DNA of 32,000 nucleotides from Nostoc sp. PCC 7120 = FACHB-418 (GCF_000009705.1 NC_003272.1:3510001-3542000), one strand, 5' to 3'. Shown: positions 1,429 through 11,776, counted from the stretch's first letter. Translations and numbers: made by a program. The notes: a model not told the origin generated them from the sequence alone.

Positions 1429-3463
1429 GCAACTAACAAAGTCATGGGGAACAAAGGAAATGAGCGTATTTGTTGCAGTTGACCAAATTGATAAGGTATT
1501 TGAATTAACTGGTGGTGGGAAATATATCGCCCTTAAAGGAATTGACCTCCAGATTAGAAAAGGTGAGTTTGTTTCTTTAATTGGTCACTCCGGTTGCGGT
1601 AAGTCCACTTTATTGAATATGATTGCTGGTTTGGATTTGCCGAGTGAAGGTATAGTCACTCTGGAAGGACAGAGAGTGAGTAGACCGGGGCCAGACCGGA
1701 TGGTGGTTTTCCAAAACTATTCTTTGTTGCCTTGGCGGACGGTGAGAGAAAATATTGCCCTGGCTGTAAACTCAGTGATGAAGGGGATGCCGGAAGCTGA
1801 ACGCAAATCAATTATCGAAAAATATATAGATATGGTGGGTTTGCGTCCCCACGCAGATAAACAACCGGGGATGTTGTCTGGGGGACAAAAACAACGGGTA
1901 GCGATCGCCCGCGCCTTGGCAATTCGTCCTAAACTATTACTATTGGATGAACCCTTTGGGGCGTTGGATGCCCTCACCAGGGGTAATTTGCAGGAACAGT
2001 TAATGCAAATCTGCGAAGAAAATGAAGTCACTGCGGTAATGGTGACTCACGACGTAGATGAAGCCGTGCTGTTGTCTGACAGAATTGTCATGTTGACCAA
2101 CGGCCCCGAATCCAAAATTGGTGACATCCTGGAAGTTGATATTCCCAGACCCCGCAAACGCATGGAAGTAGTAGAACACCCAAGCTACTACAGTTTGCGG
2201 AGTGAAATGATTTACTTCCTGAACCAGCAGAAGCGGGTGAAGAAAATTCGCGCCCGGAAAACCGCAGATGTGGCTCGTCATGGGTTAGAAAAAGTTAACT
2301 TGGAAATAGGTTTCTTACCCTTGACAGCTTGCGCCCCTTTAGCTGTAGCCAAAGAAAAAGGTTTCTTTACCAAGCATGGTTTAGATGAAGTTAACTTAGT
2401 GCGGGAAACTAGCTGGCGGGGTATCGTTGATGGCATGAAAGGCGGTTACATAGACGCAGCCCAAATGCCTTCCGGGATGCCTATGTGGTTAACCTTGGGT
2501 GGACATGATAACCAACCCCTACCAGTGGTTACCGCCCTCACCATGACCCGCAACGGTAACGCCATCACCTTGGCAAAACGCTTTTATGATGAAGGTGTCC
2601 GCAGCTTATCGGATTTTAAAAATTACCTGTTGCGTACCCGTGACCAACGCCACATCATGGGGGTAGTCCATCCCGCATCGATGCACAATTTATTGCTACG
2701 TTACTGGTTAGCGGCTGGTGGAATTGACCCGGATTTAGATGTGGACATGAGAACCATCCCACCAGCCCAGATGGTAGCCGACTTGCAAAACAAAAGTATT
2801 GATGGTTATTGCGTGGGTGAACCTTGGAACTACCGCGCCGCCGTGGAAAATGTCGGCTTTACCATTGCTACCGATTTGGAAGTGTGGTTAGGACACCCTG
2901 GTAAAGTCCTCGGTGTGCGGGAAGATTGGGCAGAAAGATATCCCAACACCCACATCGCCTTGACTAAAGCTTTGCTGGAAGCCTGCGAATATTGTTCTCG
3001 ACCAGAAAATGTCGAAGAAGTCAGAAGAATAGTAGCGGGTAGAGATTACGTCAGCACAGATTTAGATTACATTCAACTGGAAGACCCGAATAGCCTTGTC
3101 TGTGATATAGACCACCCATTACGGGACTACGCCCACCACCAATTTTTTGCCGAGTCAGCCATCAACCGCCCCAGCCGTACCGAACAAATCTGGATTATGA
3201 GTCAGTTGGCGCGCTGGGGTGATACGCCTTTCCCCAGAAATTGGGTAGAAGTTGTAGAACGGGTTTGCCGTGTGCGCGTCTTCAGTACCGCCGCTAGAGA
3301 ATTAGGTCTGGACATCAGCTATACTCGCCAACCCATCGAATTATTTGATGGCACACCCTTTAACGCCGACGACCCCATAGCCTATCTCAACAGCTTGCAT
3401 ATTAAGCGTGATTTCTCCATTGCGGAAGTCATCCTCGACTCACCAAGCAGAAGAGTAGCTTAA
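1418..3463 (+). CDS. cmpC: CmpC/NrtC-type ABC ATPase fused to a C-terminal CmpA/NrtA-like solute-binding domain
   Basis: Walker [10 protein letters not shown], signature [15 protein letters not shown], Walker [13 protein letters not shown], then about 380 aa resembling the periplasmic binding protein. The true start may be the ATG at 1460 (MSVFVAV...), which has an AAAGGAA Shine-Dalgarno-like motif just upstream and lies outside the hairpin. Confidence 0.9.
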
Positions 3464-4611: not shown

Positions 4612-4950
4612 TTGGTATGCAACAATTATTATATTTTTTAACTATGATAAATATAGATGTTTTTTAGGAAACGACCTTGCTATATTCTAAATCATCTATG
4701 ACCATATCATTACGTTAGAATTAACACACCAATAGCCAACTAAAGCTAAACTAGCTGACTTCAAACAGTACAAATTGCTAACAAAAATACAGTTATTGGT
4801 AGCTTATATAACGGAACCTATATAGTACAAAAGTCAATAGTGAGAATTGCCCATTTTACACTTAGACTTTAAATTTCAGCAAGCTTTTCAGAGTCAAACT
4901 CGATTCCCATATATAGGACTCATATTTGATTTATGAAATATACATAGGAT

Positions 4951-4999
4951 GGGCAATGCCCACCGTATCATGGTTTCGGTGGGTATTGCCCACCCTACA
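4951..4999. repeat. Dispersed palindromic repeat (GGGCAATGCCCACC type) with CACCCTACA tail
   Basis: GGGCAATGCCCACCG (4951-4965) pairs with CGGTGGGTATTGCCC (4977-4991) at 14/15 positions with an 11-nt loop, followed by CACCCTACA (4991-4999). This motif family is typical of Nostoc genomes, from memory. Confidence 0.6.
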
Positions 5000-5094
5000 C
5001 ATACTGAGATTTTTATACGCCAGTGCAGGCTACGCCAACACTAATCAAATCAGATTCCTATATCTTAACCACGAATTACAAATTACGAACTCTT

Positions 5095-5970
5095 ATGAGC
5101 CTCCGCGCACTGCTATTAGTAAATCGTCATGCCCGCCAAGGACAAGAACGTCTATTGGAAGCAATTGATCATCTGAAAAAATTCAATTTTCAGTTAATTG
5201 AAGAGACAACAGAACATCCTAAACACCTTTCGCAAGTTATACATAAATATAAAGATCAAGTTGATTTAGTTATAGTTGGGGGTGGTGATGGTACATTAAA
5301 TGCTGTCGTTGACGCTTTAGTAGAGACACAATTACCTTTAGGAATTTTGCCACTAGGAACTGCTAATGACTTAGCCAGAACATTAGGAATTTCTAACTCA
5401 TTGCCTGAAGCTTGTAAAACAATTGCCGAAGGAGAATTAAGACGTATTGATTTAGGTTGGGTAAATGGTAAACACTTTTTTAATGTTGCCAGTTTAGGGC
5501 TAAGTGTAAAAATTACCCGCCGACTTACTAAAGAATTTAAACGTCGTTGGGGTGTATTTGCTTATGCTGTCACAGCAATACAAGTTATTTGGGAATCTCG
5601 TCCTTTCAGTGCGGAAATTCGCTCTAAAGATAGAGTATTCCGTGTTAAAACTGTACAAATTGCTGTTGGAAATGGTCGCTATTACGGCGGTGGTATGGCT
5701 ATAGTTCCTGATGCCAGCATTGATGACCAAAGACTAGACCTTTATAGTTTAGAAATTAGTCATTGGTGGGAAATTATTCCCTTATTACCTGCAATGCGAA
5801 ATGGCAGACACATTCATCGACAAAACGTCCGCGCCCTCAACGGACAGGAGTTTGAAGTTTATACACGTAAACCCCGTGCCATCAATACGGATGGTGAAAT
5901 CACAACCTACACCCCCGCCACATTTCGCGTTCTTCCTAAAGCCGTAGCTGTTTTAGTTCCGCCAGTGTGA
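5095..5970 (+). CDS. YegS/BmrU/diacylglycerol-kinase-family lipid kinase
   Basis: The GGGDGT nucleotide-binding motif (VIVGGGDGTLNAVV) and overall DAGK catalytic-domain pattern. I prefer the ATG at 5095 (MSLRALLLVNRHARQG) because the longer 5023 start runs through repeat-derived sequence. Confidence 0.8.
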   Translation: MSLRALLLVNRHARQGQERLLEAIDHLKKFNFQLIEETTEHPKHLSQVIHKYKDQVDLVIVGGGDGTLNAVVDALVETQLPLGILPLGTANDLARTLGISNSLPEACKTIAEGELRRIDLGWVNGKHFFNVASLGLSVKITRRLTKEFKRRWGVFAYAVTAIQVIWESRPFSAEIRSKDRVFRVKTVQIAVGNGRYYGGGMAIVPDASIDDQRLDLYSLEISHWWEIIPLLPAMRNGRHIHRQNVRALNGQEFEVYTRKPRAINTDGEITTYTPATFRVLPKAVAVLVPPV

Positions 5971-6115: not shown

Positions 6116-6748
6116 GTGGCAATTCACATCAACTCACACCAAATACATTTGAGCTTTTCTCAAGAAATTAAGTCATTGCTGCAACGTTTAGCCGAACAGC
6201 ATTTGACACTTGGCGACATTTTGGCAGAAACCTCAGAACGTGGTTTTAGCTTGGTAATTGCATTATTGGTTTTGCCTTTCTTGTTTCCCATGCCACCAGG
6301 GGCAACAGGGCCTTTTGGTGCTGCCTGTCTGATATTATCGGTACAGATGCTTTTGGGTAGGCGATCGCCTTGGCTACCTAAAAAAATCGCTCATTATAAA
6401 TTCCCCCGTCCTTTTGCCCAGTTTCTCCTCCAAAATCTGCGGCGTGTCACCAAGGTTGTAGAGAAAATCGCCCGTCCCCGGTTAAGCAAAATAGCTCATA
6501 ACCCATTAATTTGGCGTATCAACGGGTTTTGTATATCTTGGTTGACAATATTACTTATCTCACCAATTCCCTTAACTAACCCGATACCTACTGTTGGTAT
6601 TTTATTATTAGCGATCGCCACAATTGAATCTGATGGTTTACTAATTTGCCTCAGCTATGTCGTCACTGCTGTCATTACAGTTATATTTGCATTTATTGGT
6701 TACGGTTTATGGTTGGCTCCTAGCATTCTACCGTCTATTTTTAAATAG
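6116..6748 (+). CDS. exoD: ExoD-family exopolysaccharide-synthesis membrane protein
   Basis: 210 aa with a GTG start. The N-terminal LGDILAETSERGFSLVIALLVLPFLFPMPPG segment plus about 4 TM helices fit the ExoD family pattern. Confidence 0.75.
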   Translation: MAIHINSHQIHLSFSQEIKSLLQRLAEQHLTLGDILAETSERGFSLVIALLVLPFLFPMPPGATGPFGAACLILSVQMLLGRRSPWLPKKIAHYKFPRPFAQFLLQNLRRVTKVVEKIARPRLSKIAHNPLIWRINGFCISWLTILLISPIPLTNPIPTVGILLLAIATIESDGLLICLSYVVTAVITVIFAFIGYGLWLAPSILPSIFK

Positions 6749-6818: not shown

Positions 6819-8084
6819 TGTTCAATCCCTGATAGGGATTTTTGTTAGTTAAAACCTATCAATCGTTATTGCTGTTTTTTTAGCATTTTAGCGTTTCAAT
6901 CCCTGATAGGGATTTTTGTTAGTTAAAACTTGCAGCTACTGCTGATGCAACTTGAATCTGTACTTGTTTCAATCCCTGATAGGGATTTTTGTTAGTTAAA
7001 ACCGATATGGTTCCGTTGTTGAGGGTTGCCCTGCGAGTTTCAATCCCTGATAGGGATTTTTGTTAGTTAAAACATGAGTGAAGATAGCTTGATAAAAAAG
7101 CTCAGTTTCAATCCATGATAGGGATTTTTGTTAGTTAAAACTTGAGGCTAGATTATTTATTTTTGATGCTGTTTCCTGTTTCAATCCCTGATAGGGATTT
7201 TTGTTAGTTAAAACCCTTTTCTTGTTTTTCCCCACGCAGTATAAGCGAGTTTCAATCCCTGATAGGGATTTTTGTTAGTTAAAACCTTCGTTCCACACAT
7301 TGAAGAAGATCCCTTTGTTGTATAAGCGAGTTTCAATCCCTGATAGGGATTTTTGTTAACGCGATGTGCGACTTATTCTTAAAACCCCTCTCCAAACCTC
7401 TCCCCTGCAAGGAGAGAGGCTTTAATTATTACTCCCCTTCCCTTGTAGGGAAGGGGTTGGGGGTTAGGTCTGGGAGAAAGTTGCACACGGCGTTTTGTTA
7501 GTTAAAACACAAGAAGCGATCACCTGTAATCAATGAGTCTGGTTTCAATCCCTGATAGGGATTTTTGTTAGTTAAAACACACACATTATCAGCAAATCGT
7601 CTAATACAGTCAGTTTCAATCCCTGATAGGGATTTTTGTTAGTTAAAACTTTAGCTTTGGATTGCGTGATAGAGAGGCTGAGGGTGTTTCAATCCCTGAT
7701 AGGGATTTTTGTTAGTTAAAACTGCTAGGGGGGTGGCTCACTTTGCCTCTTCTCTTGTTTCAATCCCTGATAGGGATTTTTGTTAGTTAAAACCATAGCA
7801 AAAGTATTTAAGCTATTCTTTGCTAAGTAAACAGTTTCAATCCCTGATAGGGATTTTTGTTAGTTAAAACGTTTTTTGCGGGATGGGGGGGGTGGGTGAA
7901 GATTCGTTTCAATCCCTGATAGGGATTTTTGTTAGTTAAAACCCGCCAGCGATTAGATTGCTGGGGTTAGACATCAGTTTCAATCCCTGATAGGGATTTT
8001 TGTTAGTTAAAACCATCTACAGCGATTGATGTGGCATCAGTAAGAGCGTTTCAATCCCTGATAGGGATTTTTGTTAGTTAAAAC
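6819..8084 (-). CRISPR. CRISPR array, 16 repeats of 37 bp and 15 spacers; orphan (no cas genes in the window)
   Basis: The repeat GTTTCAATCCCTGATAGGGATTTTTGTTAGTTAAAAC starts at 6819 (degenerate, TG for GT), 6893, 6966, 7037, 7105 (C->A at 7115 in the palindromic core), 7178, 7249, 7330 (split, resumes 7493-7508), 7542, 7613, 7686, 7757, 7834, 7906, 7977 and 8048. Spacers are unique and 31-44 bp. The minus strand is inferred because the reverse complement ends in ATTGAAAC and the only degenerate terminal repeat is at the left end. Confidence 0.95.
7359..7492. mobile_element. 134-bp MITE-like insertion inside CRISPR repeat 8, flanked by an 8-bp target-site duplication TTTTGTTA
   Basis: The repeat reads GTTTCAATCCCTGATAGGGATTTTTGTTA | insert | TTTTGTTAGTTAAAAC, with TTTTGTTA present at 7351-7358 and 7493-7500. 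Imperfect terminal inverted repeats CGCGATGTGCGACTT and AAGTTGCACACGGCG match at 12/15. Internal hairpins include CCCCTTCCC-TTGTA-GGGAAGGGG. There is no ORF. Confidence 0.8.
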
Positions 8085-8350
8085 TGCCTGAGTCTAGAAG
8101 GCTTACTGTATTTAGTTTTCAAGGTGCGGTTGCGTCAATCTGAAACTAAGGTAGCTTTTCAGCCATTGGGTTGTCAAGAGTAGCATCTTAAAAAATACCG
8201 AAAAAGATACTCTAGCAAAGGTTCAGGCGATCGCGTCAACCTCATACTGAAGCTAAACTGACTCAAGCCATGACAGTATAAGCATTTTAGCCGTAAAATT
8301 TGGTACTGTGAAAAAAACACCTATAGATTGACGCTAATCCTCGCCACTCC
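8085..8350 (-). promoter_or_regulatory. Putative CRISPR leader (if the array is read on the minus strand)
   Basis: This 266-bp non-coding stretch lies between the kinase stop (8351) and the last intact repeat. It is AT-rich and contains GCGTCAA three times (8132, 8233 direct; 8328-8334 inverted) and a TATACT -10-like hexamer on the minus strand (8275-8280). The assignment depends on the orientation inference. Confidence 0.35.
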
Positions 8351-11300
8351 TTAGCGTTCATTGAGAGTCAAAGTTTGATGAATTTGAGTTAATAAGTCTT
8401 CCATTGAGATGGAACGTGGGACAATTTGGGTAGCGATCGCTTTTGCCACACCCGCGATAGATTCAGATTCCTGCTTTTTGGCATGAGTCAGTTTACTGCG
8501 AGAAGTAACTTGAGAGCGACTTAGTTGTTGGTCAATAACTAAAATCGGTGGCAAATTGCAAGGTAAATCCTGTAGTGCTTTCAAAGCTTTTACTGCTTCT
8601 GGATGGATAGCTGATTCTCCTAGACAAATCAGCAGTAAATCAACGCTATTGTGGCGAATTTGTTGTAAGACTTCTGCCCAACAGCGCGCCATTGTGGCTT
8701 TTAAGCCGGCTGTTTGTAAGTACTGAATTAAAGCTTGGAACCATTCAGTTCCCCGTTCTGCAACTTCCCCACGGCTGACAGTTTTTCTCTCTGTACCAGA
8801 AACCTTGGCTGGTTTGCGTCTAGTTTGTGGTAAATCCTCTAGCATTGCCAAGTCTACTACAAAGATGTTTGGTGGGTAGCAGATACCAGAGGCAATTTGT
8901 AGCACAGATAGTAAGGGATCTAGTTTGCCCTTGCGTAGCTCACTATCGTTATCCCTCACACGGGGTGTTAAACAAGGAAACACAGAAAGACCAGGAATTT
9001 GGGAAGCAGCCAAGGTCGTTTCTACATCACAAGTTACTAACGGTAAAGCGGCTAGGCGGGGATGCTGAGTTAATTGTTGTAGATAAGTTTGGGCTAGAGA
9101 AGTTTCTACATCCAACAAAATGACATCAAACTGCCAAACCCTAGCCAAAAGTTCGGCTTGGTCTAAATCATCCACCTCAATCACCCGGTGTTCCTGTAGT
9201 GAAGGATGGGGATTGATAGATTCCAGTTCCGCATCAACTAACCGCAGAATCCTTAGAGTCTTTTTTGATTGATTCTTTTCATTAATCCCTAAACCTAGTG
9301 ACTGCACCGTCGGTTTGCCACATAGTTTATCTAACAATGGTGTTAGAGATTGCTGCTCTACTGGCAAGCTGAGGAAACCATCGGCGCGGTTAGCAAAGGC
9401 TATGTCTTTTTCTGCGCCTGTAGCAGTGACAACTACCGGAATATGACGAGTTGCACCATCGGATTTTAGCAAAGTCAGCACATCCCAACCAGACAGCAAA
9501 GGTAACAGGGGATTTAAAAAGATGGCTTTCGGTTGCAAACGCCTGGCTTTTTCCACAGCTTCTGTTCCTGAGCGCGCAATTACTACTCGATAGCCTAAAG
9601 TTTTGAGTTGGTCTGTCAAGTCTTCTATATATCGGGCTACGGCTTCCACTACCAAGACTAATCTTTGGGAGGAAATATTATGATTTTGCCCAGTATTAGT
9701 TACCCGATTGCGGGTGTTGGTGTTGGCGGTGGGTATATCTTCCACCACCGTTTCCGACTCAGCAAAACCACTGCTGGGTGGGCTAGGTGGTAACAACAAG
9801 GTAAATTGACTGCCTTTACCTTCCCGCGACAAAAAGCTGACATCGCCGCCGTGGAGACGAGCTAAAGCCCTAGTTAAGACCAATCCTAAGCCTGTACCTT
9901 CAAATTGGCGGGTGAGGGGATTTTCTAATTGTTGGAACTTTTGAAAGATTAAATGTTGTTGGTGTTCGGGAATACCAATTCCTGTATCCCAAACTGTAAA
10001 GGCAATCCATCCTTCCCAGTGACTGACTCTTAAGCCAATTTCGCCGGATATTTCTGTAAATTTGAAAGCGTTAGATAACAGGTGAACCAGCATTTGGCGC
10101 AGACGCAACTCATCAGCCACTATCTGGTCTAAGTCCAGTTCCATTGAAAGGGTAAATTCAGGAGTAGATTGGCGAGTGGCTTCTGTGGTGCTGCCTTTAC
10201 TAGTTTGATTATGGATCGCTTTGGCTTCTGAAAGAGCGCGATCGCACACAGCCCTAATACTCACTGGTACTGGGGTCAATTCCATTTGCCCTGTTTCCAT
10301 GCGGGTTAAATCCAAAATGTCATTCACCACGCTCATCAGGTGGCGACCACTTTGGTGAATTAGCCCCGCATAACGAGCTTGGCGTTCGTTGAGTTCCCCC
10401 AATTGCTGGTCTACCAACAACCGCGATAAGCCCAAAACTGCTGTTAAGGGTGTTTTCAATTCATGACTGATACAAGCTAAAAATTCATCTTTTAAGCGAT
10501 TTAACTGAATGAGATCAGCATTTTTGGCAGCAAGTTCTTTACAAAGTTGCTGCTGTTCTGTGACATCCGTCGCCAACACCAGCCATAAATCATCGGTGTT
10601 GGGCAATTTTAAATCGGTATTATCTAACAGAATTTTGGCAAACTGCCAAACTCGCTCCTGTCCGTTCTGTACTTCTACCACACAGGTACAAGTACCCATT
10701 TGACTATCTAAAAAGCAGCGACTAGAGCTAGTTTTGGCGCTGGTTGTTGGTTCGTAGGGTGATAGGGGTAGCAAACCTGTGGCAGGTATTTGCGCTAACT
10801 CCTCTCCTACTTGCTCATAGCCTTGAATATGATTTGTGCCTGTGGTACTTCTTTGACCAACGTATTCTGGCTGTTTAATCCTGGTAGCTGCCAAAATTGC
10901 TTCCACTTGTTGACGCACACCCTCTGGATCTTTCAAGGCTCCCAATTGTTGCCACCAAGCTAAATTTCGTGTTAACACCTCACCTGCACTGGTTTGCAAC
11001 ATTAAAGGCCAAGGTAGGCGCTCTAATAACTGTACCAATGGTTGGAGTTGGTCGCTTCTAGACGCTGGTGGTGTCTCTCGCAGAGAACGGGCGACATCCC
11101 GCAATGAACGTCGCGTTGGCGCAGCCTCTTGTAGAGATGGCGTTCCACCCCCCATAGGTGATCCCCTCAAACCAGCCTCGACACCATCTATATATGTAGA
11201 GTTAGGGGCATGAGGATGATTCGCTGTTTGCTCTTTTGCCAATGCTGCCAATAAACGCACACTGTCGAGAATACCCAAGAATTTACCTTCTCCATCAACC

Positions 11301-11776
11301 AATACATATTCCCAGTTATGGGCTTGGTGATACCGCCAGAATACGCCTAATTGCTCTACACTATGGCTGGCTGGTAATATCTGTATTGGTTCAATTAAGG
11401 CTTGACTAAAGGTTGACAGTGGCTGTTGTAAGTTTAAAAATAGTTCATTACCTGTGGCTGCTAACAACTTTCGTGCTAGCTGGCCAGAGTGCAGCAACCC
11501 AACGGGGCATTGCTGCTCATTTACTATCACCAAGCGATCGCCCAAGGCGGGGCTTCTCTTTGAGACGCTACGCGAACGCCCATCGCATTGCTGTTGCTCA
11601 AAAATCTCCAGCACCATTGCCAGAGTACTTGTTTCTAAGCAACTGGTTACATTGGCTAGAAATTCATCAAGCGGATACTGTAGCATTGACATAAGGCTTT
11701 GGGGGATCATTCTTCCTCTGAAAGCCTCTGGCTCCACCATGAGCATTGGAGCAGATAGTGTTACTGCCGGAGGCAA
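8351..11776 (-). CDS. Hybrid sensor histidine kinase: CBS pair, PAS-like region, HisKA/HATPase, then three degenerate receiver-like domains
   Basis: H-box ISHELKTPLTAVLG (His codon 10463-10465) and the ATPase motifs (G1/G2: WDTGIGIP, GTGLGL). The first C-terminal receiver fold has Asn in place of the phospho-acceptor Asp (AIFLNPLLP, Asn codon 9512-9514). Two further receiver-like segments also appear degenerate (DVILLDVETS, DLLLICLGES). The exact start is uncertain (Met at codons 1, 11 and 13). Confidence 0.85.
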   Translation of the reverse strand: MPPAVTLSAPMLMVEPEAFRGRMIPQSLMSMLQYPLDEFLANVTSCLETSTLAMVLEIFEQQQCDGRSRSVSKRSPALGDRLVIVNEQQCPVGLLHSGQLARKLLAATGNELFLNLQQPLSTFSQALIEPIQILPASHSVEQLGVFWRYHQAHNWEYVLVDGEGKFLGILDSVRLLAALAKEQTANHPHAPNSTYIDGVEAGLRGSPMGGGTPSLQEAAPTRRSLRDVARSLRETPPASRSDQLQPLVQLLERLPWPLMLQTSAGEVLTRNLAWWQQLGALKDPEGVRQQVEAILAATRIKQPEYVGQRSTTGTNHIQGYEQVGEELAQIPATGLLPLSPYEPTTSAKTSSSRCFLDSQMGTCTCVVEVQNGQERVWQFAKILLDNTDLKLPNTDDLWLVLATDVTEQQQLCKELAAKNADLIQLNRLKDEFLACISHELKTPLTAVLGLSRLLVDQQLGELNERQARYAGLIHQSGRHLMSVVNDILDLTRMETGQMELTPVPVSIRAVCDRALSEAKAIHNQTSKGSTTEATRQSTPEFTLSMELDLDQIVADELRLRQMLVHLLSNAFKFTEISGEIGLRVSHWEGWIAFTVWDTGIGIPEHQQHLIFQKFQQLENPLTRQFEGTGLGLVLTRALARLHGGDVSFLSREGKGSQFTLLLPPSPPSSGFAESETVVEDIPTANTNTRNRVTNTGQNHNISSQRLVLVVEAVARYIEDLTDQLKTLGYRVVIARSGTEAVEKARRLQPKAIFLNPLLPLLSGWDVLTLLKSDGATRHIPVVVTATGAEKDIAFANRADGFLSLPVEQQSLTPLLDKLCGKPTVQSLGLGINEKNQSKKTLRILRLVDAELESINPHPSLQEHRVIEVDDLDQAELLARVWQFDVILLDVETSLAQTYLQQLTQHPRLAALPLVTCDVETTLAASQIPGLSVFPCLTPRVRDNDSELRKGKLDPLLSVLQIASGICYPPNIFVVDLAMLEDLPQTRRKPAKVSGTERKTVSRGEVAERGTEWFQALIQYLQTAGLKATMARCWAEVLQQIRHNSVDLLLICLGESAIHPEAVKALKALQDLPCNLPPILVIDQQLSRSQVTSRSKLTHAKKQESESIAGVAKAIATQIVPRSISMEDLLTQIHQTLTLNER

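Follow-up and report, generated by a model that had tools for sequence, protein, structure and literature searches.

Insertion of a MITE from a dispersed cyanobacterial family into one repeat of the CR_6/CR_7 CRISPR array of Nostoc sp. PCC 7120

In Mycobacterium tuberculosis, IS6110, an autonomous 1.35-kb element of the IS3 family with its own transposase, sits in the direct-repeat (CRISPR) locus and splits it, a long-known feature that is used in strain typing. A MITE, HqIRS37, has been described in a residual CRISPR of Haloquadratum walsbyi HBSQ001 (PMC3119063). The system closest to the locus considered here is that of Anabaena sp. PCC 7120, in which a 134-nt MITE divides what is a single array into CR_6 and CR_7 (Reimann et al., bioRxiv 10.1101/2020.04.14.041012, where Hou et al. 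2019, RNA Biology, is cited for the CR_6/CR_7 arrays). According to the same preprint, the type I-D Cas6 Alr1566 is the main enzyme cutting the DR6/7 repeat, with the type III-D Cas6 contributing less, mature crRNAs in vivo start with an 8-nt handle, and all PCC 7120 arrays are transcribed and yield crRNAs (bioRxiv 10.1101/2020.04.14.041012). CR_6/CR_7 is classed as an orphan array served in trans by a type I-D system located elsewhere in the genome. A further MITE, Nezha, is outlined as an element of ~130-170 bp in A. variabilis ATCC 29413 and Nostoc sp. PCC 7120, with an AT-rich target preference, inverted ends, flanking repeats and a stable fold (Zhou, Tran & Xu 2008); in a benchmark paper, one detection program annotates Nezha as 135 bp with the flanking repeat CATTATCTAC.

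The window analyzed here, a stretch of 32,000 nucleotides (32 kb) of Nostoc sp. PCC 7120 DNA, contains the same object as CR_6/CR_7: the organism, the array and the MITE split are the same, and nothing substantive differs. The insertion is real, was correctly interpreted in the original prediction and is already published; the accompanying remark that few such cases have been described does not stand, because the insertion in the window was itself published as the CR_6/CR_7 split, and the Haloquadratum spacer MITE was published as well. Like IS6110, the element is a transposable element that splits a CRISPR array, but it is a 135-nt non-coding sequence. Like HqIRS37, it is a MITE within an array without cas genes (PMC3119063); however, the archaeal element lies in a spacer of an array considered non-functional, whereas that in the window lies in a repeat of an array served in trans. 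The discovery value is therefore small, the insertion being documented in a model organism whose arrays have been shown to be transcribed and processed. What is added over the preprint is a family-level description of the element ends, the 6-7 bp duplications, a target consensus and a likely 7-bp/135-nt reading of the insertion. Under the reading that we favor, with a probability of about 0.93, a trans-mobilised MITE of 135 nt inserted in the AT-rich tail of one repeat of the orphan array, duplicating 7 bp (TTTGTTA). The features of the locus are collected in Table 1.

Table 1. Features of the split CRISPR array and of the inserted element; positions are counted from the first nucleotide of the window.
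Feature	Position	Strand	Description
CRISPR array CR_6 + CR_7	6820-8084	-	16 repeats of 37 nt, plus strand GTTTCAATCCCTGATAGGGATTTTTGTTAGTTAAAAC; matches to Rfam CRISPR-DR5
Spacer that immediately follows the preserved hairpin and handle on the transcript	7286-7329	-	44 nt
29-nt repeat remnant	7330-7358	-	RNA strand is the 3' part, UAACAAAAAUCCCUAUCAGGGAUUGAAAC, with Cas6 hairpin and 8-nt handle
Target-site duplication, left copy, TTTGTTA	7352-7358		7-bp reading; 7351-7358 in the 8-bp reading
MITE, 135 nt, ACGCGATGTGCGACTT...AAGTTGCACACGGCGT	7359-7493	+	Likely extent, from alignment with the family consensus; earlier reading 134 nt, ending at 7492
Left terminal inverted repeat, ACGCGATGTGCGACTT	7359-7374	+	
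Right terminal inverted repeat	7478-7493	-	ACGCCGTGTGCAACTT on the minus strand; 13/16 identical to the left end
GC hairpin 1	7394-7422		Arms 7394-7406/7410-7422, 13 nt, 85% complementary
GC hairpin 2, CCCCTTCCCT/AGGGAAGGGG	7434-7456		Arms 7434-7443/7447-7456, 10 nt, 100% complementary
Target-site duplication, right copy, TTTGTTA	7494-7500		
Other repeat remnant	7494-7508	-	RNA strand is the 5' part, GUUUUAACUAACAAA; earlier reading 7493-7508
Spacer upstream on the transcript, its unit now running 3' into the element	7509-7541	-	
Array leader	8085-8350 (~265 nt)	-	Aligned to the corresponding A. variabilis and A. subtropica regions
Promoter-like site, TTCACA-17-TAAAAT	8312-8284	-	In the leader; consensus match only

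The array is located between an exoD-like gene (6116-6748) and a gene for a hybrid histidine kinase (8351-11776, minus strand), in the region from exoD to the kaiABC genes. The ExoD protein of the window has the same sequence as BAB74581.1 from Nostoc sp. PCC 7120. The window further encodes ABC-transporter proteins, which by position are those of cmp bicarbonate transport, a diacylglycerol-kinase-like protein, KaiA, KaiC, RuvB, a HisF-like protein and phytochrome-type kinases. By their order, we take the genes around the array to be alr2878-alr2886 of PCC 7120, with exoD as alr2882. All 16 repeats, the split one included, are matched on the minus strand by the Rfam family CRISPR-DR5 (RF01318), with 57.3 bits for the 13 identical copies against a gathering score of 40, and repeat starts are 68-81 nt apart, with the split unit (212 nt) as the single exception. 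The contention that every repeat other than the split one is intact applies to these 13 copies but not to the remaining two: the trailer repeat (6820-6855) is degenerate and one base short, and in the repeat at 7105-7141 a C>A substitution affects the stem of the Cas6 hairpin (CCCTGATAGGG to CCATGATAGGG). This change breaks the stem and may impair processing at that repeat, which scores 46.4 bits versus 57.3 for intact copies.

On the transcribed strand, the repeat reads GUUUUAACUAACAAAAAUCCCUAUCAGGG up to the Cas6 cut and AUUGAAAC after it, and its predicted RNA fold includes a Cas6-type hairpin. Minus-strand transcription, as originally proposed, follows from the strand of the Rfam matches, from the position of the degenerate repeat at the low-coordinate end and from that of the conserved leader at the high-coordinate end. 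The leader is common to PCC 7120, A. variabilis and A. subtropica and is conserved although the A. subtropica locus has another downstream gene; mean column identity in the three-way alignment is 90%, a figure that includes the first repeat because the alignment spans 8048-8360. The degenerate trailer repeat with its 1-nt deletion is likewise common to PCC 7120 and A. variabilis. No cas domains were detected in the 20 flanking ORFs of the window and, judged from its sequence, the array is an orphan transcribed on the minus strand.

Repeat 8 of the 16 is split into fragments of 29 nt (7330-7358, GTTTCAATCCCTGATAGGGATTTTTGTTA) and 16 nt (7493-7508, TTTTGTTAGTTAAAAC), precisely where the break had been placed. 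The fragments overlap by TTTTGTTA (7351-7358 and 7493-7500), an exact direct repeat, such that 29 + 16 - 8 = 37 nt, and removal of the insert together with one copy of the overlap restores the repeat with 0 mismatches. The truncated repeat, taken as 7330-7360, is matched by CRISPR-DR5 with 40.9 bits. In the register first reported, the inverted ends of the insert, CGCGATGTGCGACTT (7360-7374) and CGCCGTGTGCAACTT (7492-7478, minus strand), match at 12 of 15 positions, the same count as given previously, and two of the three end mismatches of the window copy recur in the family consensus. A match between inverted ends somewhere in the 32 kb is not rare (10 of 100 shuffled sequences contained at least two); at the exact position and on the exact strand, the arithmetical chance of a match is ~1e-5. 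Both internal GC hairpins reported earlier were recovered, and the assertion that the insert has no ORF holds in substance, given that the only overlapping ORFs are trivial ones of 45 and 35 aa. Matches of microRNA families from Rfam within the element were rejected, as they score far below the gathering thresholds and reflect the hairpins. The window contains only this one copy. The element is small and non-coding and has terminal inverted repeats, a target-site duplication and at least 120 copies elsewhere, the features expected of a MITE.

These copies were retrieved by searching species-representative genomes for the two end cores spaced 90-120 nt apart, which yielded at least 120 stretches with the same ends but differing sites and flanks, as the original prediction had anticipated for a mobile element. 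The matches listed come from genomes other than that of PCC 7120. Among the matches listed, nearly all copies belong to Nostoc and other Nostocales, and a BLASTN search of plasmids identified a full-length copy, 88% identical, on plasmid pn1 of Nostoc sp. UHCC 0926, with the direct repeat TTAATTAA on either side. Over its whole length, the window copy can be aligned with a consensus built from 99 copies among the matches listed, and it agrees at 120 of 135 positions. Its closest relative among the matches listed (131 of 135 positions) occurs in Nostoc parmelioides FACHB-3921, a sister species with an ExoD 97% identical to that of the window; a flipped hairpin loop and a single substitution are all that distinguish this copy from that of the window, and it occupies an unrelated site with the flanking repeat TTAGATA (L092). 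Five canonical copies among the matches listed come from a bin labelled Acetobacteraceae (L020, L036, L037, L045 and L115), which is probably contaminated with Nostoc contigs. Copies in bins assigned to Gammaproteobacteria, Desulfobacteraceae and SAR324 (L040, L047 and L070) have atypical distances of 112, 113 and 137 nt between the end cores, and two others lie within tandem heptamers, CGTAATT in L112 (~7621-7746, minus strand) and TGGAGTT in L126 (577-703).

The existence of this multi-copy family, together with the exact rebuilding of the repeat, bears out the interpretation of the segment as an insertion with a target-site duplication in a repeat. That it is instead a long spacer or array scar between two decayed repeats, or an assembly artefact, is exceedingly improbable. 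Assemblies of this locus can err, as illustrated by short-read contigs from Logan in which the array is collapsed to a single repeat, and an irregular gap of 196 nt adjoins the trailer repeat in the A. variabilis array. However, the fragments add up to exactly one repeat with 0 mismatches over 29 + 16 nt, and the insert belongs, at full length, to a dispersed family. Furthermore, identical insert junctions are present in two complete chromosomes, CP183817.1 and AP018216.1, as well as in one metagenome contig, and recovery of the same junctions in independent assemblies of the PCC 7120 lineage argues against an artefact. These Logan contigs (L005 and L006) were considered as an array-less allele and dismissed: the array is collapsed there onto one chimeric repeat, in which the head of the trailer repeat is joined to a leader-side tail. 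Such collapsed short-read contigs should be regarded as poor evidence of an empty site.

Examination of the orthologous locus in relatives, a check suggested at the outset, was informative in part. Arrays of 21-38 repeats were found at this locus in four A. variabilis assemblies (L127-L130) and in A. subtropica FACHB-260 (L135), with a repeat that is a one-base variant of that in the window (GTTAATT vs GTTAGTT); at NIES-3756 and A. azotica, no array was called at the locus. In A. subtropica, all 21 repeats are intact and none is split, and in A. variabilis, the leader-side repeats are intact and again no split repeat is present, so that the exoD locus in relatives is an ordinary CRISPR array. 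However, PCC 7120 shares 0 spacers with the A. variabilis and A. subtropica arrays and, for want of common spacers, the sister arrays do not provide a base-for-base empty site. Metagenome contigs were also scanned for an exact pattern, the unbroken repeat followed by the same spacer, with 0 matches; neither in these contigs nor in the orthologous arrays did we find an allele that combines the spacers of the window with an unbroken repeat.

To place the element boundaries, we compared the left and right flanks position by position in the 101 copies with canonical ends among the matches listed. A flanking duplication of 6 bp is present in 66 of the 101 and one of 7 bp in 18, with 10 copies showing no clear duplication and seven showing other flank spacings. 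Among these matches, the rate of agreement at the duplicated positions is no lower than 0.94 for 6-bp duplications (66 copies) and no lower than 0.83 for 7-bp duplications (18 copies), and agreement drops to background at the near-invariant first A and last T of the element. The family element thus reads ACGCG ATGTGC(A/G)ACTT ... AAGTTGCACAC GGCGT, and its target consensus is T-A-(A/G)-(T/A)-T-A, that is, TA-N-N-TA-like. The terminal T is found in 78 of the 84 copies with a clear duplication among the matches listed (62/66 and 16/18).

Given the near-invariant A and T at the ends and the family duplications of 6-7 bp, the duplication in the window is, on sequence grounds, most likely 7 bp (TTTGTTA), with the eighth matching base being the terminal T of the element. 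The terminal T happens to equal the base preceding the target, and the window copy, taken by itself, fits either position of the 1-nt boundary. The earlier description of a perfect 8-bp duplication around a 134-bp element therefore stands as regards the exact 8-bp direct repeat, whereas the family ends make 7 bp and 135 nt likelier. A true 8-bp duplication (TTTTGTTA), with an element of 134 nt lacking the terminal T of its family, is consistent with the exactness of the 8-bp repeat, with the size given in the literature (134 nt) and with the variable length of duplications in the family, but it is unlikely, because family copies with a clear duplication among the matches listed have 6 or 7 bp duplicated and mostly carry the terminal T, and both a 1-base truncation and an atypical duplication length would have to be assumed. 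The insertion is equally certain under the 7-bp and the 8-bp reading, which differ only in a 1-nt boundary, and the reconstruction of the repeat is unaffected by the choice.

The spacers at 7215-7248 and 7286-7329 end on the plus strand in the same 10 nt, GTATAAGCGA, immediately before the next repeat. The second of these adjoins the split repeat and, at 44 nt versus 32-37 nt for the others, resembles a 34-nt spacer plus an extra 10-nt copy. The common ends suggest that this part of the array underwent recombination or conversion locally and, together with the presence in PCC 7120 of other arrays with related repeats, lend some credit to the possibility that the element came from an array copy already carrying it, through homologous recombination or gene conversion, rather than by direct transposition. 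Nevertheless, this origin is very improbable: the duplicated bases are repeat sequence at the usual distance of the family from the element ends, as primary insertion gives, and no second repeat carrying the element is known.

Under direct insertion of the 135-nt MITE, an enzyme encoded elsewhere would recognise the 16-nt ends and make a 6-7 bp staggered cut at a TA-rich target, such as that offered by the AT-rich tail of the repeat. Because the element cannot encode a transposase, its mobilisation would have to occur in trans. We searched 1 Mb of Nostoc DNA for a parent, considering inverted end pairs 0.6-3.5 kb apart as well as solitary ends, and recovered degraded MITE ends only; an autonomous element with matching ends was found neither in this ~1 Mb nor in the plasmid collection. 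A partial match on plasmid pn3 was rejected as a parent, being situated in a phage-tail gene cluster with no adjoining transposase. The element ends, in our estimation, resemble the inverted repeats of IS1. A tblastn search of the Nostoc loci for an IS1-type transposase, with an IS1 sequence that translates to intact InsA and InsB as the query, was negative, and the resemblance is no more than a tentative lead. No match to the element was obtained on PCC 7120 plasmids, and a copy-specific 39-mer gave 0 matches in metagenome contigs.

Outside the cyanobacteria, two plasmids of Polaromonas naphthalenivorans CJ2 (L138 and L139, both at 3003-3065) contain an exact 19-20 nt match to the element end, TTAACGCGATGTGCAACTT, followed by ~45 nt that are conserved between the plasmids and include an inverted copy of GCAACTT. 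Both are single, unpaired ends of a related element, here in a betaproteobacterium, and no transposase gene was found near them. They fit a horizontal transfer of Nezha, the abstract on which reportedly mentions transfer to Polaromonas. Nezha and the element in the window are found in the same host species, are of similar size and share AT-rich targets, inverted ends, flanking repeats and a stable fold, and the flanking repeat quoted for Nezha contains TTATCTA, which fits the TA-N-N-TA target of the window family, although it is 10 bp long as compared to 6-7 bp. On these circumstantial grounds, the window family may be the Nezha MITE.

The Cas6 hairpin, the cut site and the handle remain together in the 29-nt remnant beside the spacer at 7286-7329, in agreement with the claim, supported by position and predicted fold, that the hairpin and the AUUGAAAC handle stay with this spacer. 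In the predicted fold, the element closes upon itself through its ends and the two hairpins (-73 kcal/mol, z = -7.3) and leaves the repeat hairpin free. With hairpin and cut site retained in the remnant, a normal 5' handle is expected on the crRNA of this spacer, the 5' end of which should accordingly be normal in our model. The unit of the next spacer (7509-7541) was said to run into the element at its 3' end, and the array coordinates place it so; the Cas6 intermediate of this spacer is predicted to be ~212 nt long instead of ~70, by arithmetic that assumes a Cas6 cut 8 nt before the repeat end. In the proposed mechanism, the array would still be transcribed from the leader across the element, the type I-D Cas6 (Alr1566) would still cut in the 29-nt remnant, and the unit of the spacer at 7509-7541 would give an intermediate ending in tightly folded MITE RNA that is trimmed at the 3' end or lost. 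The suggestion that the element might bring in a promoter or terminator was not upheld: a consensus scan of its minus strand found no promoter- or terminator-like site, and it is expected to add neither in recognisable form to the transcribed strand. The published crRNAs from all arrays are consistent with read-through. The locus is a well-defined natural construct in which the Cas6 hairpin and cut site are separated from the 5' part of the repeat by a 135-nt structured RNA, and it could be used to address the 3'-end trimming of type I-D crRNAs.

Only one of the 121 family copies examined among the matches listed, namely, the window copy, is located in a CRISPR repeat, indicating that insertion into repeats is occasional rather than a habit of the family and disfavoring a strong preference for CRISPR. 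The AT-rich tail TTTTTGTTAGTTAAAAC provides sequences that fit the TA-N-N-TA target in every repeat. The A. variabilis gap mentioned above lies between the trailer and the second repeat (4741-4936 in L127, identical in L128-L130) and is occupied by hairpin modules, AACCCCTCTCCAAACCTCTCCCC...GGGGAGAGG and CCCCTTCCCTTGTAGGGAAGGGGTTGGGG, that are related to those inside the element; it has neither the element ends nor a clear duplication and may represent a second, independent and older insertion by a related element into the same array. From the fit of the target in every repeat and the hairpin-module insert in A. variabilis, one could argue that small hairpin-rich mobile elements are a general driver behind the fragmented arrays typical of filamentous cyanobacteria, CR_6/CR_7 representing the earliest stage that can be seen, a generalisation that we regard as distinctly doubtful. 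If it were true, the RNA of the element could be released as a stable structured RNA within the ~212-nt intermediate, bounded by the Cas6 site of the next intact upstream repeat and that of the 29-nt remnant. More practically, the description of the family (its ends, 6-7 bp duplications, TA-N-N-TA target and spread in Nostocales) may aid the annotation of cyanobacterial genomes.

Two further differences among the assemblies were observed. Two of the A. variabilis assemblies (L129 and L130) have 38 repeats versus 33 in the two others, owing to an extra block (~4933-5612) in which four already-present spacers are repeated and one new spacer is added, that is, an internal duplication of the array. 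In the window, the spacer at 7871-7905 contains a run of 8 G, compared to 9 G in three assemblies of the PCC 7120 lineage (L002-L004); this is the sole difference before a frame shift in the 8.6-kb comparison with these assemblies and is due either to the sequencing of the homopolymer or to a difference between strains.
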